Of a DNA stretch of 64,000 bases, positions 23,097 through 31,792 are shown piece after piece; the stretch's first letter is position 1; the number at the start of each line of letters is the position of its first letter. The stretch lies in NCBI RefSeq assembly GCF_055900595.2, contig NZ_CM148325.1; one strand, given 5' to 3'. The notes under the pieces are model-generated. The model was not told the origin of the DNA. It did not search any database and worked only from the letters and a program-made list of their open reading frames with translations. The translations under genes and the position numbers were made by a program.

Positions 23097-24410
<1,314 letters not shown>

Positions 24411-24429
24411 GCCTGACTTTATCTGATTT

Positions 24430-24461
24430 AAAAATGCCAGCCTTCGGGCTGGCATTTTTTA
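24430..24461. terminator. Bidirectional intrinsic terminator between eno and the convergent TPM gene
   Basis: AAAAATGCCAGCC-ttcg-GGCTGGCATTTTTT, flanked by A-run and T-run. Confidence 0.8.
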
Positions 24462-24469
24462 TGGCTGAG

Positions 24470-25375
24470 TTACCAGCGGCCAGACGCGCCGCCACCGCCA
24501 GAAGAACCGCCACCTCCGCTAAATCCGCCGCCACTTGAGCCGCCACCGGAAGAGGATGAAGAAGAACCTTTTCTTGAAGCTCTTTCTTTACCGAGCGTCT
24601 TGTATTTGGCTCGTAGCTTTTTATTAACGATAAGCCAAAAGATAAGCAGCGCTACGATCGCAAAAGGCGTTAACATACCGCAGGCAACGATTAAATTCGT
24701 CCATGGTCCTGGCTCGGCAACATAGAGGAATACCATCCCGTAAATTGCGGCAGTGAGAGTTATCCAGGGTAGATTCGACGGATCGGTAAAAACAATAAAA
24801 TATGAAAGCACTGCCAGCAATATAAGTACAGCAAGCGAAAATGGGATAGGGGGATTGATACTGTAATAATTCCCCCTGCCTTCCGGTAATTCACCATTCA
24901 TCAGAAGTGCGCCGATATTTTCGCTTGCCAGTGTTACCCCCCCCATCAGGTCATCACTTTTGAAAGCAGGGATTAATATATCACGGATAATCTTTGCCGC
25001 TTGCAGGTCGGTAACCACCCCTTCCAGCCCATAGCCGACTTCTATACGAACAGCATGATCTTCCCAGGCAACCAGAAGTAAAATGCCATCGTTTCGCTGC
25101 TTATCTCCCAGTTTCCAGCTATCAAAAACGCGTGTTGCATATTGTTCAATGGTATCGTCTCCGGTGGATGGCACTATTAATACGGCAACCTGTGCCCGTG
25201 TTTTTTGTGTAATATCCTGCAGCTGTTGTGTCAGTGATTGTTGTTCAGACGTGCTTAAGGTACCAGTAATATCGGTCACATGTTGGCGCAGCTCCGGCAC
25301 AGCAATTTGCTGGGCAAGCACAGGAAGGCACCATAAAGTGAGTAGAAAAAGGATTATACGCATAACGATCACCAA
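24470..25375 (-). CDS. TPM-domain membrane protein (YgcG family), paralog 1
   Basis: 301-aa ORF with signal peptide, TPM-like region, two TM segments and Gly/Ser tail ending GGGASGRW. Confidence 0.8.
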   Translation of the reverse strand: MVIVMRIILFLLTLWCLPVLAQQIAVPELRQHVTDITGTLSTSEQQSLTQQLQDITQKTRAQVAVLIVPSTGDDTIEQYATRVFDSWKLGDKQRNDGILLLVAWEDHAVRIEVGYGLEGVVTDLQAAKIIRDILIPAFKSDDLMGGVTLASENIGALLMNGELPEGRGNYYSINPPIPFSLAVLILLAVLSYFIVFTDPSNLPWITLTAAIYGMVFLYVAEPGPWTNLIVACGMLTPFAIVALLIFWLIVNKKLRAKYKTLGKERASRKGSSSSSSGGGSSGGGFSGGGGSSGGGGASGRW

Positions 25376-26517
25376 CGGCCGGATGAACCGCCACCGCCAG
25401 AAGAACCGCCGCCACCGCGGAAAGAGTTTTTCGACGAAGAGCGAGAATGAGCATTACGATTCCCCATTTTCCTGTTGATTTTATGTCCTGATCCCAGTTT
25501 AAGATTGCCAGTAAATTTGGCCACAATGATCAGCAGAACGATGCCAGCAATGGTTATTGGGCCGATAAAATGATCAATTAGCCCAATAATTGTTGAGATG
25601 AACGCAATATCTTTATTACTGGCAAATACCAGGCACCATCCCACAACAATTATCAGCAGCACGACAAACAATGAATTTCGTCCTGATTCACGAACCTGCG
25701 GAGCCTTCTTTTGTTTTTTCACTTTAGCGTTTTTATTTTGGGGGGCCAGCATCATAGGAAATGCGCGGCATATATTAAAAACTACCGCGAGACGCTGCCA
25801 GTAGATTGCTGCGAAAAATAAACTAAAACAAACGACCGATACCCGTCGAATGATGACATCGTTCTGAAAGCAGAAAAACCAGACCATAGGGGTAATCATC
25901 GATATCATCCATATGCCAGGCCCTGGATGGGTGGTAAATCGCCAGAGGACAACGATGGCAACGATCATCAGCAGTGTCCAGGCAAGACATGGCAGAGAGC
26001 GTTGCGGATTAGCAAACAGATGATTGGCTAAAGCATCCAAAGGGCTAAGATTCGCTTTTATATAGGTAAACTGTGCAATGCCTTCAATTCCCTGCGTTAA
26101 CCCGGAGAAGAGATTATTTTTTTTGAATTCCGGTTGCATATGGTAATGAACAATTTGCGCAGCTTGTTCCGGTGGCAGCATCTCTTCCAGTCCATGCCCA
26201 ATCTTCATTGACGCCAGCCCTTCCGGCCAAACGACGAGAATTAAGATACCTTCGCCGTACCGCTTCTCTCCAACAGGTTTCCAGTGATATAACCCGTAGC
26301 TTTGCGAGGCTGCAAGTTTAATGTCTTTACCCCCAGTGGTCGGCGTTACCAACACGGCAACCTGAAAGTGGTTTTGCTGCTCGAGAGTCTGTAATTGTTG
26401 AGTTAAAGCAGTTTGTTCTTCTGTCGTTAATGTCCCGGTTAAGTCAGTTACTGAAGGCAATTGTTCAGCGAATGCCTGGAAACCACATAGCATCAGAAGT
26501 AAGAGAAAAATACGCAT
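25369..26517 (-). CDS. TPM-domain membrane protein, paralog 2 (extended multi-TM region)
   Basis: 382-aa ORF, signal peptide plus TPM-like N-terminus, about five hydrophobic segments, tail GGGGSSGGGGSSGRW. Confidence 0.75.
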   Translation of the reverse strand: MRIFLLLLMLCGFQAFAEQLPSVTDLTGTLTTEEQTALTQQLQTLEQQNHFQVAVLVTPTTGGKDIKLAASQSYGLYHWKPVGEKRYGEGILILVVWPEGLASMKIGHGLEEMLPPEQAAQIVHYHMQPEFKKNNLFSGLTQGIEGIAQFTYIKANLSPLDALANHLFANPQRSLPCLAWTLLMIVAIVVLWRFTTHPGPGIWMISMITPMVWFFCFQNDVIIRRVSVVCFSLFFAAIYWQRLAVVFNICRAFPMMLAPQNKNAKVKKQKKAPQVRESGRNSLFVVLLIIVVGWCLVFASNKDIAFISTIIGLIDHFIGPITIAGIVLLIIVAKFTGNLKLGSGHKINRKMGNRNAHSRSSSKNSFRGGGGSSGGGGSSGRW

Positions 26518-26531
26518 TTCAATTCCTTTTG

Positions 26532-27464
26532 TTACCAGCGCCCGGAGGCGCCACCGCCGCCAGATGAACCGCCGCCGCCGCTGAAATTATCATTGTCAAA
26601 AGAGGATGAAGAGGAAGATGACGACGATGATGAAGAACGCCTGGAGGCCGAGTTACTTCTTTCGTAATGTGACGGTCGGTTGGCACTGCGCATCGAATCC
26701 CGAACCTTTTTGCCGAAGGGGGTAAAAGCGATGGCGACAGCCAGGAACGGTGTGGCGAAGCAGAGTAATGTTGCGAGTACTCCCCAGCTTCCGCTGAAAC
26801 CTGCTATAGGTAAAACAAAGGCCAGTACAATAGCTGTGAAGCAAATTAGTCCCAGCGTTTTGACATATCCTCTGGCGGAAATAAAGGTCAGTACTATTGC
26901 CCAGACTAACAAAGCCCACCAACCGTTAAAGGGCAAAGGGTGATCGGTCGGTGTTATCGTTGCTAAATTATTCCCCGTCAGACGATTATCAATATCGCTT
27001 ATTCCCTTTTGCAAGCCGCCAGCCAGGTCGCCATTTTTAAATGCCGGAATAATACTGTTGCGAATAATTTTCCCGGACTGCGCATCCGTAATAACGCCTT
27101 CCAGTCCGTAACCGACTTCAATACGCACGGTATGATCCTGCCAGGCGACTAACAGTAGAACGCCATCATCGCGGTCTTTATCACCCGGTTTCCAGCTATC
27201 GAATACCCGCGTAGCGTACTGCTCGATGGTTTCATCGCCCGTTGTTTCAACCACTAACACGACCAGTTGTGCGTGGCTTTTTTGCGTCAGCTCTTTAATC
27301 TGATTGGTCAACGTATTTACTTCATCGTTCGTCAATTTGCCGGTTAAGTCATTCACATACCTGGGTGATTCAGGTACTGGAATTTGTATGGCAAACACAG
27401 ATGAACAAAAGAAAGCCATAAGGAAGATAAAATTTCGCACAGGACTTCCTCGCTTAATGAGCAT
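26532..27464 (-). CDS. TPM-domain membrane protein, paralog 3
   Basis: 310-aa ORF, strongly similar to paralog 1 through ATRVFDSWKPGDK...LLLVAW..HTVRIEVGYGLEGV; Ser run and tail GGGGSSGGGGASGRW. Confidence 0.8.
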   Translation of the reverse strand: MLIKRGSPVRNFIFLMAFFCSSVFAIQIPVPESPRYVNDLTGKLTNDEVNTLTNQIKELTQKSHAQLVVLVVETTGDETIEQYATRVFDSWKPGDKDRDDGVLLLVAWQDHTVRIEVGYGLEGVITDAQSGKIIRNSIIPAFKNGDLAGGLQKGISDIDNRLTGNNLATITPTDHPLPFNGWWALLVWAIVLTFISARGYVKTLGLICFTAIVLAFVLPIAGFSGSWGVLATLLCFATPFLAVAIAFTPFGKKVRDSMRSANRPSHYERSNSASRRSSSSSSSSSSSSFDNDNFSGGGGSSGGGGASGRW

Positions 27465-28056
27465 TAGTATTCTGGCTAAAATCTATTGTCGGGGCTTTAC
27501 TCACAGCGGCGACATCATCCGGCAAATAATTTTTCTTTGGTGTGTAATCCATAACCTTTGCGGTTAACACTGCGGGGAATTTGCGGATAGTGACATTATA
27601 TTGTTCAATAGCTTTAATATATCTTCCTCGCGCAACGGCAATTCGATTTTCACTTCCTTCGAGCTGTACCATCAAATTTTGATAGAGTTCCTGGGCCTTT
27701 AGCTCAGGGTAACGTTCACTAATTATCGTTAACTGACCGAGAGTGCGAGACACCTGCGCCTGAGCTTGTTGCCAGGTTTGTAATTTTTGTTCATCTCCCG
27801 GAGTTTGCTGAAGAGCACTACTGGCGCGATTAGCCTGACTACGTGCCAATGTTACGGCTTCCAGTACCTCTTGTTCATGGCTGGAATAACCTTTAATACT
27901 GGCGACAAGATTAGGAATAAGATCGGCGCGACGTTGATATTGATTTAATACCTCAGACCAGGAAGCGTTAACCTGCTCATCATAGGTTTGAATATCGTTA
28001 TATCCACAGCCTGATAAATTGAAAATAAATATAATTACGATGAATGTTCTGAGCAT
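27454..28056 (-). CDS. lemA: LemA-family protein
   Basis: 200-aa ORF with N-terminal lipoprotein-like signal (LSGCGY) and coiled-coil-rich body typical of LemA; stop overlaps the start of TPM paralog 3. Confidence 0.8.
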   Translation of the reverse strand: MLRTFIVIIFIFNLSGCGYNDIQTYDEQVNASWSEVLNQYQRRADLIPNLVASIKGYSSHEQEVLEAVTLARSQANRASSALQQTPGDEQKLQTWQQAQAQVSRTLGQLTIISERYPELKAQELYQNLMVQLEGSENRIAVARGRYIKAIEQYNVTIRKFPAVLTAKVMDYTPKKNYLPDDVAAVSKAPTIDFSQNTNAH

Positions 28057-28128
28057 GGTTAAATCCCTTTTAATTAATTCCTTAAAACATAATACGCCAC
28101 TTCATTTTATTCTTTATGATCTAATCCA

Positions 28129-28137
28129 CTTTTTGCC
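28129..28137. repeat. IS10 target-site duplication, left copy (CTTTTTGCC)
   Basis: Identical 9-mer directly abuts both IS10 ends. Confidence 0.9.
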
Positions 28138-29466
28138 CTGAGAGATCCCCTCATAATTTCCCCAAAACGTAACCATGTGTGAATAGATTTTGAGTAAGCA
28201 GGGTTGCAGCCACGAGTGAGTCTTCCCTTGTTATTGTGTAGCCAGAATGCCGCAAAACTTCCATGCCTAAGCGAACTGTTGAGAGTACGTTTCGATTTCT
28301 GACTGTGTTAGCCTGGAAGTGCTTGTCCCAACCTTGTTTCTGAGCATGAACGCCCGCAAGCCAACATGTTAGTTGAAGCATCAGGGCGATTAGCAGCATG
28401 ATATCAAAACGCTCTGAGCTGCTCGTTCGGCTATGGCGTAGGCCTAGTCCGTAGGCAGGACTTTTCAAGTCTCGGAAGGTTTCTTCAATCTGCATTCGCT
28501 TCGAATAGATATTAACAAGTTGTTTGGGTGTTCGAATTTCAACAGGTAAGTTAGTTGCTAGAATCCATGGCTCCTTTGCCGACGCTGAGTAGATTTTAGG
28601 TGACGGGTGGTGACAATGAGTCCGTGTCGAGCGCTGATTTTTTCGGCCTTTAGAGCGAGATTTATACAATAGAATTTGGCATGAGATTGGATTGCTTTTA
28701 GTCAGCCTCTTATAGCCTAAAGTCTTTGAGTGACTAGATGACATATCATGTAAGTTGCTGATAGGTTTCCAGTTTTCCGCTCCTAGGTCTGCATATTGTA
28801 CTTTTCCTCTTACTCGACTTAACCAGTACCAACCCAGCTTCTCAACGGATTTATACCATGGCACTTTAAAGCCAGCATCACTGACAATGAGCGGTGTGGT
28901 GTTACTCGGTAGAATGCTCGCAAGGTCGGCTAGAAATTGGTCATGAGCTTTCTTTGAACATTGCTCTGAAAGCGGGAACGCTTTCTCATAAAGAGTAACA
29001 GAACGACCGTGTAGTGCGACTGAAGCTCGCAATACCATAAGCCGTTTTTGCTCACGGATATCAGACCAGTCAACAAGTACAATGGGCATCGTATTGCCCG
29101 AACAGATAAAGCTAGCATGCCAACGGTATACAGCGAGTCGCTCTTTGTGGAGGTGACGATTACCTAACAATCGGTCGATTCGTTTGATGTTATGTTTTGT
29201 TCTCGCTTTGGTTGGCAGGTTACGGCCAAGTTCGGTAAGAGTGAGAGTTTTACAGTCAAGTAAGGCGTGGCAAGCCAACGTTAAGCTGTTGAGTCGTTTT
29301 AAGTGTAATTCGGGGCAGAATTGGTAAAGAGAGTCGTGTAAAATATCGAGTTCGCACATTTTGTTGTCTGATTATTGATTTTTGGCGAAACCATTTGATC
29401 ATATGACAAGATGTGTATCCACCTTAACTTAATGATTTTTACCAAAATCATTAGGGGATTCATCAG
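28138..29466 (-). mobile_element. IS10 (IS4 family), complete 1329-bp copy
   Basis: Ends CTGAGAGATCCCCTCATAATTTCCCC (inside end) and, on the reverse strand, CTGATGAATCCCCTAATGATTTTGGT (outside end); exact length 1329 bp; 402-aa transposase; flanked by 9-bp direct repeat. Confidence 0.93.
28151..29359 (-). CDS. IS10 transposase
   Basis: 402-aa ORF MCELDILHDSLYQFCPELHLKRLNSLTLACHALLDCK... Confidence 0.93.
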   Translation of the reverse strand: MCELDILHDSLYQFCPELHLKRLNSLTLACHALLDCKTLTLTELGRNLPTKARTKHNIKRIDRLLGNRHLHKERLAVYRWHASFICSGNTMPIVLVDWSDIREQKRLMVLRASVALHGRSVTLYEKAFPLSEQCSKKAHDQFLADLASILPSNTTPLIVSDAGFKVPWYKSVEKLGWYWLSRVRGKVQYADLGAENWKPISNLHDMSSSHSKTLGYKRLTKSNPISCQILLYKSRSKGRKNQRSTRTHCHHPSPKIYSASAKEPWILATNLPVEIRTPKQLVNIYSKRMQIEETFRDLKSPAYGLGLRHSRTSSSERFDIMLLIALMLQLTCWLAGVHAQKQGWDKHFQANTVRNRNVLSTVRLGMEVLRHSGYTITREDSLVAATLLTQNLFTHGYVLGKL

Positions 29467-29475
29467 CTTTTTGCC
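29467..29475. repeat. IS10 target-site duplication, right copy (CTTTTTGCC)
   Basis: Matches 28129..28137 exactly. Confidence 0.9.
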
Positions 29476-29566
29476 TTAAACCTGCCTGTAACAGAATGTT
29501 AATAAGACATGATTGTTGTGGCAGGATCTGCAATAATTAACAATTATCCACTTCACAGAGAATGCT

Positions 29567-30238
29567 ATGCAGTACCCGATTAACGAGATGTTCCAGACCC
29601 TGCAAGGTGAGGGTTACTTTACCGGCGTCCCCGCCATTTTTATTCGTTTACAGGGATGCCCGGTCGGCTGTGCCTGGTGCGACACCAAACACACCTGGGA
29701 AAAGCTTGAGGATCGGGAAGTCTCCCTTTTCAGCATTCTGGCGAAGACCAAAGAGAGTGATAAGTGGGGGGCGGCGAGCAGTGAAGATTTGCTGGCTGTC
29801 ATTGGTCGTCAGGGATACACCGCGCGGCATGTGGTGATTACGGGTGGTGAGCCTTGCATTCATGATTTGCTGCCACTGACTGACCTGCTCGAAAAGAACG
29901 GTTTTAGCTGCCAGATCGAAACCAGCGGTACTCATGAAGTACGCTGCACGCCGAATACCTGGGTTACCGTATCGCCAAAGCTGAACATGCGCGGCGGCTA
30001 TGAAGTGTTGTCACAGGCACTGGAACGAGCCAACGAAATCAAGCATCCAGTGGGACGCGTACGTGATATTGAAGCACTGGATGAACTACTGGCAACGCTG
30101 ACCGATGATAAACCACGAGTCATTGCACTGCAGCCAATTAGCCAGAAGGACGATGCCACACGTTTGTGCATTGAAACCTGTATTGCGCGTAACTGGCGTT
30201 TATCGATGCAAACACATAAATATTTAAATATTGCCTGA
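29567..30238 (+). CDS. queE: 7-carboxy-7-deazaguanine synthase QueE (radical SAM)
   Basis: 223-aa ORF with CPVGCAWCDT radical-SAM cysteine motif. Confidence 0.9.
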   Translation: MQYPINEMFQTLQGEGYFTGVPAIFIRLQGCPVGCAWCDTKHTWEKLEDREVSLFSILAKTKESDKWGAASSEDLLAVIGRQGYTARHVVITGGEPCIHDLLPLTDLLEKNGFSCQIETSGTHEVRCTPNTWVTVSPKLNMRGGYEVLSQALERANEIKHPVGRVRDIEALDELLATLTDDKPRVIALQPISQKDDATRLCIETCIARNWRLSMQTHKYLNIA

Positions 30239-30576: not shown

Positions 30577-31154
30577 GAGTTCCCCACGTCAGCGGGGATA
30601 AACCTTGCTCGATGCGGGCGTTAACTTTTTTATAGGCGAGTTCCCCGCGCCAGCGGGGATAAACCGCGTAATTTTGTACGCTCAACACGTAACTAAATGA
30701 GTTCCCCGCGCCAGCGGGGATAAACCGATCACCAGTGCGGATTGTTCAAATAGTGCCTGGAGTTCCCCGCGCCAGCGGGGATAAACCGAGAGCTATATCG
30801 CAGCGTTTAACTGGATGACAGAGTTCCCCGCGCCAGCGGGGATAAACCGGTGTTTTTTGCCATCTGAACTGTGGCACGCCGGAGTTCCCCGCGCCAGCGG
30901 GGATAAACCGTCTATAATGTCTCATCCGGGGTTAATTCAATCGAGTTCCCCGCGCCAGCGGGGATAAACCGATCAGCCCCACATCCGGTTTTGCCAGCAA
31001 CGTGAGTTCCCCGCGCCAGCGGGGATAAACCGTAAGATGATCTCACGGAATTGAACGAACTACGGAGTTCCCCGCGCTAGCGGGGATAAACCGGACACAG
31101 AGCGCCGCTATAGCGCCTATGCCAAGAGTTCCCCGCACCAGCGGGAATAAACCA
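30577..31154 (+). CRISPR. Type I-E CRISPR array (CRISPR 2.3-like): 10 repeats, 9 spacers of 32 nt
   Basis: 29-nt repeat GAGTTCCCCGCGCCAGCGGGGATAAACCG at 61-bp period starting 30577, 30638, ... 31126; first and last repeats degenerate; AT-rich leader-like region 30240..30576. Confidence 0.95.
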
Positions 31155-31608
31155 CCATATAACCCGTTATCTCTTTCTCAAGTTTTTATATTAGCAGTAC
31201 TCGTATTAAGCAACATATCCACGTAACACCTCATGTTCAAAATAGCTCTCCATATATGAGAAGTTCACAATTATCGATACAAAAAATCAAATTTAATTAA
31301 AGTGTTAGTTGTATAATACTTAAATCATTAAGAAATTATCATATATTATTTTTTTAATATTGAATTGATGTTTGTTAATTTTTTCTTTAGGATAATAGTT
31401 TGTTTTTTAAGCTTATTATTCATTGATTAAGTAATAAATCTGGAAATTTGTCTTTGTTTTGAGGCTAATGAGTGATTTTACATAATCGCCTCTATAGGCT
31501 GTTGATGAATAGTTCTTATGAATAAAGATATCCAGTTCATACTTTAAGTGAAAATTGATAAAGTGCGATTCGTATTGTCTTTTATTCTAATGACATCGAG
31601 TGTAGTTA

Positions 31609-31746
31609 ATATTCCTTGTAAAAACAGGGATAAACCGAACTAGTTAAAGTTTTTATTATGTTCCCTGCATCAGCGGGGATAAACCGGACTTGTTATCATT
31701 TTTTAAGTTGTCGAACTTATGTTCCCCGCGCCAGCGGGGATAACCA
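31609..31746 (+). CRISPR. Degenerate mini-array (CRISPR 2.2-like remnant), about 3 repeats
   Basis: Repeats ATGTTCCCTGCATCAGCGGGGATAAACCG (31658) and ATGTTCCCCGCGCCAGCGGGGATAACC (31719) plus a partial upstream copy ending ...CAGGGATAAACCG (31637). Confidence 0.7.
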
Positions 31747-31792
31747 TTCAGGTATGTTCAGGCCGGGCAGTTTCCCGCCCGGCCTTCCTCAC

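Follow-up and report, generated by a model that had tools for sequence, protein, structure and literature searches.

Between eno and queE on the Escherichia coli chromosome, the stretch of DNA analysed here (64,000 nt of NCBI RefSeq assembly GCF_055900595.2, contig NZ_CM148325.1; hereafter the window) carries an apparent four-gene operon, lemA-TPM3-TPM2-TPM1, encoding a LemA-family lipoprotein and three TPM-domain membrane proteins. The operon is an Escherichia-specific expanded form of a widespread proteobacterial lemA-TPM module, from which it departs in its three long tailed TPM proteins, the orphan five-helix membrane block of TPM2 and its deep allelic mosaicism. Comparison of the site across genomes indicates that the four-gene cluster is the older state, that K-12 carries a reduced relic of it and that most E. 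coli have lost lemA, TPM3 and TPM2. We hold this account of the anatomy and evolutionary history of the operon to be very probably correct. Few bacterial envelope proteins without an assigned function are as widespread as LemA and TPM proteins.

Organization of the lemA-TPM operon

The window has pyrG and eno on the plus strand with queE beyond them, and the eno-queE interval holds four minus-strand open reading frames (ORFs). The LemA-family lipoprotein of 200 amino acids (aa) is encoded by lemA (27454-28056, minus strand). Next comes TPM3 (26532-27464, minus strand; 310 aa as the longest ORF), with a signal peptide, a predicted periplasmic TPM domain, three transmembrane (TM) helices and a putative cytoplasmic Ser/Gly tail with an SGRW end. 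TPM2 (25369-26517, minus strand; 382 aa) has a signal peptide, a TPM domain, three TM helices, a Lys-rich loop predicted to be cytoplasmic, two further TM helices and a Gly/Ser tail with the same SGRW end. TPM1 (24470-25375, minus strand; 301 aa as the longest ORF) comprises a signal peptide, TPM domain, three TM helices and a Gly/Ser tail, again ending SGRW.

A sequence-only reading of this DNA had described an operon of co-directional genes with overlapping stop and start codons. The shared direction and tight packing were confirmed, whereas the overlaps depended on taking the longest-ORF starts. Because homologous starts differ from these, TPM3 likely begins at GTG 27440 (302 aa), with a GAGGA Shine-Dalgarno sequence upstream and a 13-nt gap past the lemA stop, and TPM1 likely begins at ATG 25363 (+5 gap) or GTG 25372 (4-nt overlap). 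With the revised starts, intergenic gaps were 14 nt or less throughout, and a terminator scan found no terminator-like sites between the four genes, which by their packing form an apparent operon. The promoter scan returned five promoter-like sites in the scanned region, against a mean of 8.7 in shuffles, and found no convincing sigma-70 site upstream of lemA. Between eno and TPM1, which converge, the terminator scan picked up a GC-rich hairpin (24400-24417) on either strand, as a consensus match only; it is a probable terminator common to both genes.

The three TPM ORFs were also considered as fragments of a single gene. This was ruled out, since a separate signal peptide, TPM domain and tail are present in every one of them and their orthologues in other strains are intact as well; the three paralogs are thus whole, as they had appeared by eye. 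The impression that the segment is more AT-rich than its flanks was likewise correct: GC content was 0.42-0.49 in the four genes and 0.51-0.52 in pyrG, eno and queE, and GC at third codon positions (GC3) was similarly lower (0.35-0.49 against 0.53-0.56).

Predicted structure and localization of the proteins

LemA matched the whole of the Pfam PF04011 model (positions 1-149/149; E=2.1e-48). It has the signal peptide MLRTFIVIIFIFNLSG and a lipobox, LSGC, with Cys17, and continues into a helical bundle; the hydrophobic N-terminus and lipobox together form a predicted N-terminal membrane anchor. Because a lipoprotein signal peptide is present, the LemA domain would be extracytoplasmic, sitting in the periplasm on a lipid anchor. 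Since Gly and not Asp follows the lipid-modified Cys, LemA probably goes to the outer membrane under the E. coli Lol sorting rule. The lipobox Cys was followed by Gly in 82/82 LemA ORFs sampled. The fold is a four-helix bundle matching TM0961 (PDB 2ETD); when the LemA model was used to search for similar folds, all matches other than 2ETD were generic helical bundles (talin rod, catenin, designed proteins) and uninformative on function. Scored against the NCBIfam MamQ model (NF040966), LemA reached 91 bits with a cut-off of 250 and is no MamQ member.

All three TPM proteins matched Pfam PF04536 over model positions 1-124/125 (TPM3, E=7.1e-41; TPM2, 2.2e-22; TPM1, 1.3e-38). ORF reading, Pfam and TM prediction upheld the architecture first read by eye. 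In every paralog, a hydrophobic N-terminal signal sequence carrying an AxA-type site precedes the TPM domain, and hydrophobic helices, a basic stretch and a Gly/Ser tail running to SGRW come after it. Hydropathy predicted three TM helices in TPM3, five in TPM2 and three in TPM1, in line with the larger multi-TM region that had been noted in TPM2; across homologues, a crude and noisy hydropathy count gave three helices in 35 proteins and two in 23. TPM1 and TPM3, thought to be related through an ATRVFDSWK...LLLVAW...RIEVGYGLEGV core, proved 47% identical over their full length with this core in common, and TPM2 was approximately 32% identical to each of them. The C-terminal tails read GGGGSSGGGGASGRW in TPM1 and TPM3 and GGGGSSGGGGSSGRW in TPM2. 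The segments coding for these tails were 85-88% identical between paralogs as DNA (TPM2, ~25371-25418; TPM3, ~26531-26585), with gene bodies that could not be aligned as DNA.

TPM3 matched solved TPM domains by sequence (PDB 7TBR, 1.5e-21; 5ANP, 2.9e-19; also 2KW7). An AlphaFold2 (AF2) model of TPM2 placed the domain at residues 20-150, as four strands with flanking helices, at a predicted local distance difference test (pLDDT) score of 80-90, and drew the membrane block as five helices at low confidence (pLDDT 35-65). The sequence matches and the model both point to the alpha/beta sandwich fold of solved TPM domains. For each TPM protein we predict export through a cleavable signal peptide, with the TPM domain facing the periplasm and held on the inner membrane by the helices. 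The disordered Gly/Ser SGRW tail most likely lies on the cytoplasmic side, because the basic segment follows the last helix. Against the NCBIfam Psb32 model (NF047379) the E. coli TPM proteins scored 34-35 bits with a cut-off of 160, placing them as distant relatives and not members.

The wider lemA-TPM family

Species-representative genomes scanned with a LemA alignment yielded 80 loci, mostly from beta- and gamma-proteobacteria, 63 of them with downstream room. A same-strand TPM gene followed lemA in 54/63 loci. One TPM gene was present in 26 loci, two (a long membrane form and a short form of ~170 aa) in 27 and none was detected in 9; among the surveyed loci, only that of E. albertii had three. 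Besides LemA and TPM, the surveyed loci contained no conserved neighbour family, the largest other cluster being antisense ORF noise. Adjacency in 54/63 loci is the basis on which LemA and the long TPM protein are inferred to work together.

A Gly-rich tail with an SG[RSDGK]W end was found in 63/74 long TPM proteins compared to 0/34 short ones. Since it occurs in most long forms and also in BA41 of the Bacteroidetes, the tail is a hallmark of long membrane TPM proteins and not an oddity of E. coli. The short TPM protein (e.g., at loci L014, L020, L022 and L025) often ends in a conserved motif, ...NELPDxPxLL, unlike the tail of the long form, and this short form is absent from the Escherichia cluster.

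Full-length relatives of TPM2, 77-92% identical, came from Escherichia only, among the matches listed. Its membrane block gave 11 matches in 1.84 billion representative proteins, including full-length TPM2, short fragments and more distant proteins of ~230-265 aa (38-41% identity), and the five-helix block appears to be essentially confined to Escherichia and Klebsiella.

Variation of the locus among E. coli genomes

The locus was compared across 5426 complete E. coli genomes. The four-gene segment was present at ≥80% in 1102 (20%), lemA in 1454 (27%) and the K-12 arrangement of yqcG and ygcG in 3924 (72%). This pan-genome comparison of the eno-queE interval agrees with the earlier suggestion that the content is strain-variable and that K-12 has a single ygcG here, to which a 46-aa yqcG must be added. 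Approximately 350 genomes had lemA without the full cluster. A third architecture was seen in strain RM10466, in which an unrelated hydrophobic membrane ORF of 120 aa (L002, 3603-3965) takes the place of TPM2 and TPM1 after lemA and TPM3.

The variable cassette has conserved edges. Its left boundary (24413-24551) consists of the eno-TPM1 spacer and the final ~80 nt of TPM1, the part coding for the Gly-rich tail. Nearly all E. coli retain this DNA: 5412/5426 genomes match the query, and the sampled genomes without the cluster match only the first ~141 nt of the query. On the right, conservation covers the beginning of lemA and the DNA between it and queE.

Decay was also apparent within the four-gene form. 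A nonsense change (TTA to TGA) at TPM3 codon 235 was found in strain 144 (L008, 5351-5353), and the exact surrounding 61-mer occurred in 300 complete genomes, which on sampling were O157:H7. In strain 144, the one O157-type strain examined for this, the lemA ATG is also lost (L008, 6639-6641), and the Prokaryotic Genome Annotation Pipeline (PGAP) uses an upstream ATT. Subtracting the 300 genomes with the nonsense codon from the 1102 with four genes leaves intact operons in roughly 15% of complete genomes. RefSeq/PGAP labels TPM3 a pseudogene ("incomplete, missing C-terminus") at four loci where an ORF of 307-311 aa is intact (L001, 5359-6030; L002, 4235-4906; L007, 5342-6013; L009, 5321-5992), and use of the truncated 224-aa O157 protein as a reference probably produced these false calls.

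Direction of change and ancestry of the cluster

The cluster of lemA and three TPM genes occupies the same eno-queE site in E. albertii (L010). At this site Klebsiella spallanzanii (L004) has the order queE-lemA-TPM-X, a clustered regularly interspaced short palindromic repeat (CRISPR) array and eno; E. marmotae and further Klebsiella species likewise have LemA homologues on record. By position, TPM3 is the orthologue of the single long TPM gene that follows lemA in Klebsiella. Gene X of K. spallanzanii (L004, 6001-6858) encodes a TPM2-like membrane protein in which a signal peptide, a TM block and an SGRW tail are present and the TPM domain is missing, and the CRISPR array between X and eno (L004, 6900-8400) has repeats that translate as ...RFIPAGAGNT...

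In K-12, a stretch of 206 nt next to queE corresponds, at 82-86% identity, to the lemA-queE spacer together with the opening ~35 nt of lemA. The similarity between yqcG and lemA continues more weakly to approximately codon 30, with the lipobox lost, and alignment of K-12 yqcG (L003, 4944-5084) with window positions 28022-28137 shows a reading extended 11 codons upstream of the lemA start. YqcG (46 aa), named in RefSeq a cell envelope stress response protein, is therefore the decayed 5' end of lemA. At the other end of the interval, ygcG is the positional allele of TPM1, and strain E50 has a four-gene cluster in which the 3' 753 nt of TPM1 are 95% identical to K-12 ygcG. The possibility that K-12 ygcG is a recent recombinant of TPM3 and TPM1 was ruled out by its 38-41% identity to either and by a 5' quarter that matches neither as DNA.

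K-12 is best read as the reduced relic, given that it retains the 5' end of lemA with its promoter region and that the cluster is syntenic in E. albertii and Klebsiella. The earlier description of an expanded accessory cluster thus held for strain variability and failed as an addition to a K-12-like ground state, on the evidence of the E. albertii and K. spallanzanii synteny and the yqcG stump. Recent acquisition of an island between eno and queE of a K-12-like ancestor would fit the GC content below that of the flanks and the presence of the cluster in only 20-27% of genomes. That explanation is largely refuted and we consider it highly improbable, since the cluster occurs at the same site in the other two species and K-12 keeps the lemA stump and promoter region. 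There were also no plasmid copies in the 5426 genomes, the cluster being chromosomal at the eno-queE locus with conserved flanks in all cases; at the cluster itself, none of the integrase, tRNA or repeat boundaries that mark a mobile island were present, and the sole mobile element was an IS10 private to this strain.

Allelic mosaicism and selection

Synonymous divergence (dS) between alleles was 0.2-0.3 for most pairs and approximately 1 for RM10466 TPM3 and E50 TPM1, compared to 0.03-0.06 for eno and 0.1-0.24 for queE in the flanks. At informative divergence, the ratio of non-synonymous to synonymous divergence (dN/dS) was 0.07-0.18 for lemA, 0.12-0.16 for TPM3, 0.2-0.58 for TPM2 and 0.15-0.4 for TPM1, and all four genes are clearly under purifying selection. 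Divergence differed between parts of one protein: TPM1 and K-12 YgcG are 56% identical in the TPM domain/ectodomain and 16% in the TM block, and RM10466 TPM3 is 76% identical in the ectodomain and 92% in the TM block. Such contrasts mark the alleles as deeply diverged segmental mosaics.

The raised dS of queE implies that diversity extends past the lemA-TPM cassette on the CRISPR side. Downstream of queE the window holds a type I-E-like CRISPR array (30577-31153) of 10 repeats (GAGTTCCCCGCGCCAGCGGGGATAAACC) with a 61-nt period. Two degenerate repeats lie approximately 500 bp beyond the array (31645-31746), with a very AT-rich stretch between (GC 0.29 at 31250-31749).

Such diversity could also arise at a conflict-driven polymorphic locus, whose inner-membrane or periplasmic products would be entry factors for phages, colicins or contact-dependent toxins, or exclusion or defence factors, and where pressure would maintain old alleles, module swapping and loss. 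At least three architectures at one site, allele dS of 0.2-1.0 against 0.03-0.06 for eno, segmental mosaic variation, independent decay in O157 and CRISPR arrays adjoining the locus in both E. coli and Klebsiella are all in keeping with it. However, none of the four proteins matched a PADLOC-DB 2.0 defence profile at E≤0.01, dN/dS was below 1 throughout and mostly 0.07-0.4 with no sign of ongoing positive selection, and no nuclease, NTPase or effector-like domain was present. The gene pair is moreover stable and chromosomal across beta- and gamma-proteobacteria, and part of the diversity may be regional given the raised dS of queE. We therefore consider a conflict locus improbable. Whatever the proteins do, and even if the envelope-maintenance reading developed below is wrong, the locus still cleanly illustrates how alleles become mosaic and genes are lost at a CRISPR-adjoining chromosomal hotspot.

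An IS10 insertion upstream of lemA

In this strain an IS10 element of 1329 bp (28138-29466, minus strand; breakpoints set by alignment with L001) lies between lemA and queE. Its transposase gene is on the minus strand (28151-29359), and a 9-bp target duplication, CTTTTTGCC, flanks it at 28129-28137 and 29467-29475; the ends of the element and the duplication were read directly from the sequence. RNA-OUT of IS10 (29352-29421, plus strand; Rfam RF00240, 97 bits) points towards queE, as pOUT therefore does too, and was the sole RNA found by an Rfam search of the neighbourhood. The lemA/queE regulatory region is split by the insertion, which lies upstream of both genes, 81 bp from the lemA ATG and 100 bp from the queE ATG. 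On the lemA side, 81 nt of the original divergent regulatory region (28057-28137, minus strand) are still joined to lemA and collinear with L001; on the other side (29467-30238, plus strand) a residual 100 nt of the intergenic region precedes queE (29567-30238), the divergent neighbour of the lemA operon.

The IS10 junction was found in 0/5426 complete genomes. Because the four ORFs are intact and 99.9% identical to those of L001, a strain without the element, the insertion is recent. It may have changed expression of the lemA operon, up or down. Over-expression of queE causes filamentation in K-12 (PMC4974570), and outward pOUT transcription could therefore matter in this strain.

The insertion bears on whether the cluster is a functionless passenger here, a remnant heading to loss whose promoter IS10 has already severed. 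That would suit a private IS10 81 bp upstream of lemA within the regulatory region, a cluster lacking from 72% of E. coli and decayed in 300 O157-type genomes, and the low GC3. Set against this are four intact ORFs, purifying selection across alleles and retention of the module in many proteobacteria, and we regard a passenger as decidedly unlikely.

Proposed function of the lemA-TPM operon

The literature searched contained no paper on the E. coli cluster, no assigned function and no experiment on any lemA-TPM operon. We propose that LemA and the TPM ectodomains would form a periplasm-facing complex with a chaperone-like part in the assembly, repair or maintenance of membrane-protein complexes of the envelope. 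Stationary phase, envelope stress or low-Mg stress would induce the operon through the regulatory region common with queE, and the three paralogs could be specialised or hetero-oligomeric subunits. This functional reading, a stress-induced envelope assembly/repair module, is drawn by analogy and is tentative, with a probability somewhat under even. Taken together, anatomy, history and function give what we consider the best explanation as a whole, at a little short of an even chance.

Several published observations are consistent with this proposal. The thylakoid lumen is topologically equivalent to the periplasm. Cryo-electron microscopy (cryo-EM) showed the TPM protein Psb32, a late assembly factor, docked to photosystem II (PSII) from the lumenal side (bioRxiv 10.1101/2025.05.08.652833), and TPM proteins partner PspA in Firmicutes, where a chaperone-like role has been proposed (PMC11237479). 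In K-12, the yqcG-queE intergenic region binds sigma-S RNA polymerase (PMC4447067, PMC5493296) and phospho-PhoP (PMC4974570). In Flavobacterium columnare, an sppA mutant under membrane stress had raised expression of both lemA and a TPM gene (PMC13236525). The membrane-stress or envelope-repair role that the sequence-only reading had raised as speculation stays tentative, but it gains indirect support from the factors that bind the K-12 regulatory region and from the behaviour of other TPM proteins.

Other points weigh against the proposal. The Psb32 and MamQ analogies are distant, with scores far below the cut-offs (34/160 and 91/250 bits), the putative LemA-TPM interaction is deduced solely from gene adjacency, and LemA localisation and TPM topology are predictions. 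The Pfam description of Gram-positive LemA assumes the opposite orientation. The regulatory data come from the 85%-identical K-12 relic locus, and IS10 splits the region in this strain. Any role must also be dispensable, since 72% of E. coli are without the module and the O157 lineage has the TPM3 nonsense codon and a lost lemA start. Finally, the conserved match to the metal-site Asp, Leu and Glu would fit an enzyme equally well as a chaperone.

That last point leads to the reading of the TPM ectodomains as periplasmic phosphatases or nucleotidases that depend on a metal and whose substrates could be, for example, nucleotides, lipid-linked pyrophosphates or phosphoproteins, with LemA as anchor or regulator and paralogs differing in substrate. 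The CrLMTP1/7TBR metal-site positions were conserved in alignment A3 (Asp 43/44, Leu 44/44, Glu 30/44), all three were present in TPM1, TPM2 and TPM3, and a G-x-G-L-E motif was nearly invariant. The family takes its name from the reported acid-phosphatase activity of TLP18.3, and BA41 was reported to have ATPase/ADPase activity (both cited in PMC11237479 and bioRxiv 10.1101/2024.10.28.620569). The reported activities nevertheless give no consensus on TPM domain function (bioRxiv 10.1101/2024.10.28.620569), Psb32 acts by binding in the cryo-EM work, and ATP is no obvious periplasmic substrate. No pathway gene was a conserved neighbour, and a simple hydrolase would account neither for a conserved tail in the cytoplasm nor for a helical partner such as LemA. 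A set of enzymes is on these grounds unlikely.

A bolder extension of the assembly/repair proposal would join outer-membrane-anchored LemA and the inner-membrane TPM proteins into an envelope-spanning or periplasm-facing surveillance and repair machine, with SGxW tails recruiting a cytoplasmic partner, alleles kept or lost through phage or toxin entry, and YqcG as a by-product of one loss. We offer this as a long shot. If it were true, natural E. coli variation would provide an isogenic series for solving LemA/TPM function.

The locus is in any case a natural experiment, in which the four-gene, two-gene, O157 nonsense and K-12 stump forms occupy one chromosomal position between identical flanks. 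As E. coli is the best model organism, this makes genetics, topology mapping and interaction tests simple and gives a tractable handle on a widespread module. The view of K-12 changes as well, with yqcG a lemA remnant and ygcG the last survivor of a larger operon, a reinterpretation that is new to us.

Comparison with known systems

The closest relative is the K-12 locus itself. YgcG resembles TPM1 in its signal peptide, TPM domain, TM block and tail ending GGGGASGRW, with 41% identity overall, and the final ~80 nt of ygcG together with the spacer are 91% identical to the TPM1 end. Unlike the cluster described here, K-12 has no functional lemA, TPM3 or TPM2, its YqcG stump lacks a lipobox and the YgcG TM block is unrelated (16%) to that of TPM1. 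The generic lemA-TPM module is alike in having a lipoprotein LemA followed on the same strand by a long TPM protein with a Gly-rich SGxW tail, a form present threefold here. It differs in having one or two TPM proteins, the second (in about half of the loci) being short (~170 aa) and tail-less, whereas the Escherichia cluster has no short TPM protein.

BA41 of Bizionia argentinensis (PDB 5ANP) shares the TPM domain and, after it, a membrane segment, has a Gly-rich tail that runs to GGGGASGGW and is matched by TPM3 at E=2.9e-19. It is, however, a Bacteroidetes protein with reported in vitro ATPase/ADPase activity, and the BA42 type (PDB 4OA3, 2MPB) is matched only weakly by TPM3 (E=3e-4). The TPM protein YdjH of Bacillus subtilis, from the pspA-ydjGHI operon, has as partners PspA and a band-7 protein and not LemA, and no PspA-family gene adjoins the Escherichia cluster.

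On the LemA side, LemA of Listeria monocytogenes, TM0961 (2ETD) and MamQ belong to the same Pfam family and have the same four-helix bundle. E. coli LemA is predicted to be anchored as a lipoprotein, whereas this group is anchored by a helix. To our knowledge, MamQ of magnetotactic bacteria, which takes part in forming the magnetosome membrane, is the only LemA member whose role in the cell has been described.

The Psb32/TLP18.3/LMTP1 proteins differ from the E. coli TPM proteins in having no LemA partner and no Gly-rich tail, and E. coli has no photosystem. They are alike in an extracytoplasmic, membrane-tethered TPM domain in which the metal-site Asp, Leu and Glu are kept, and by this analogy a Psb32-type assembly factor would be the best functional precedent for the TPM proteins of the operon.

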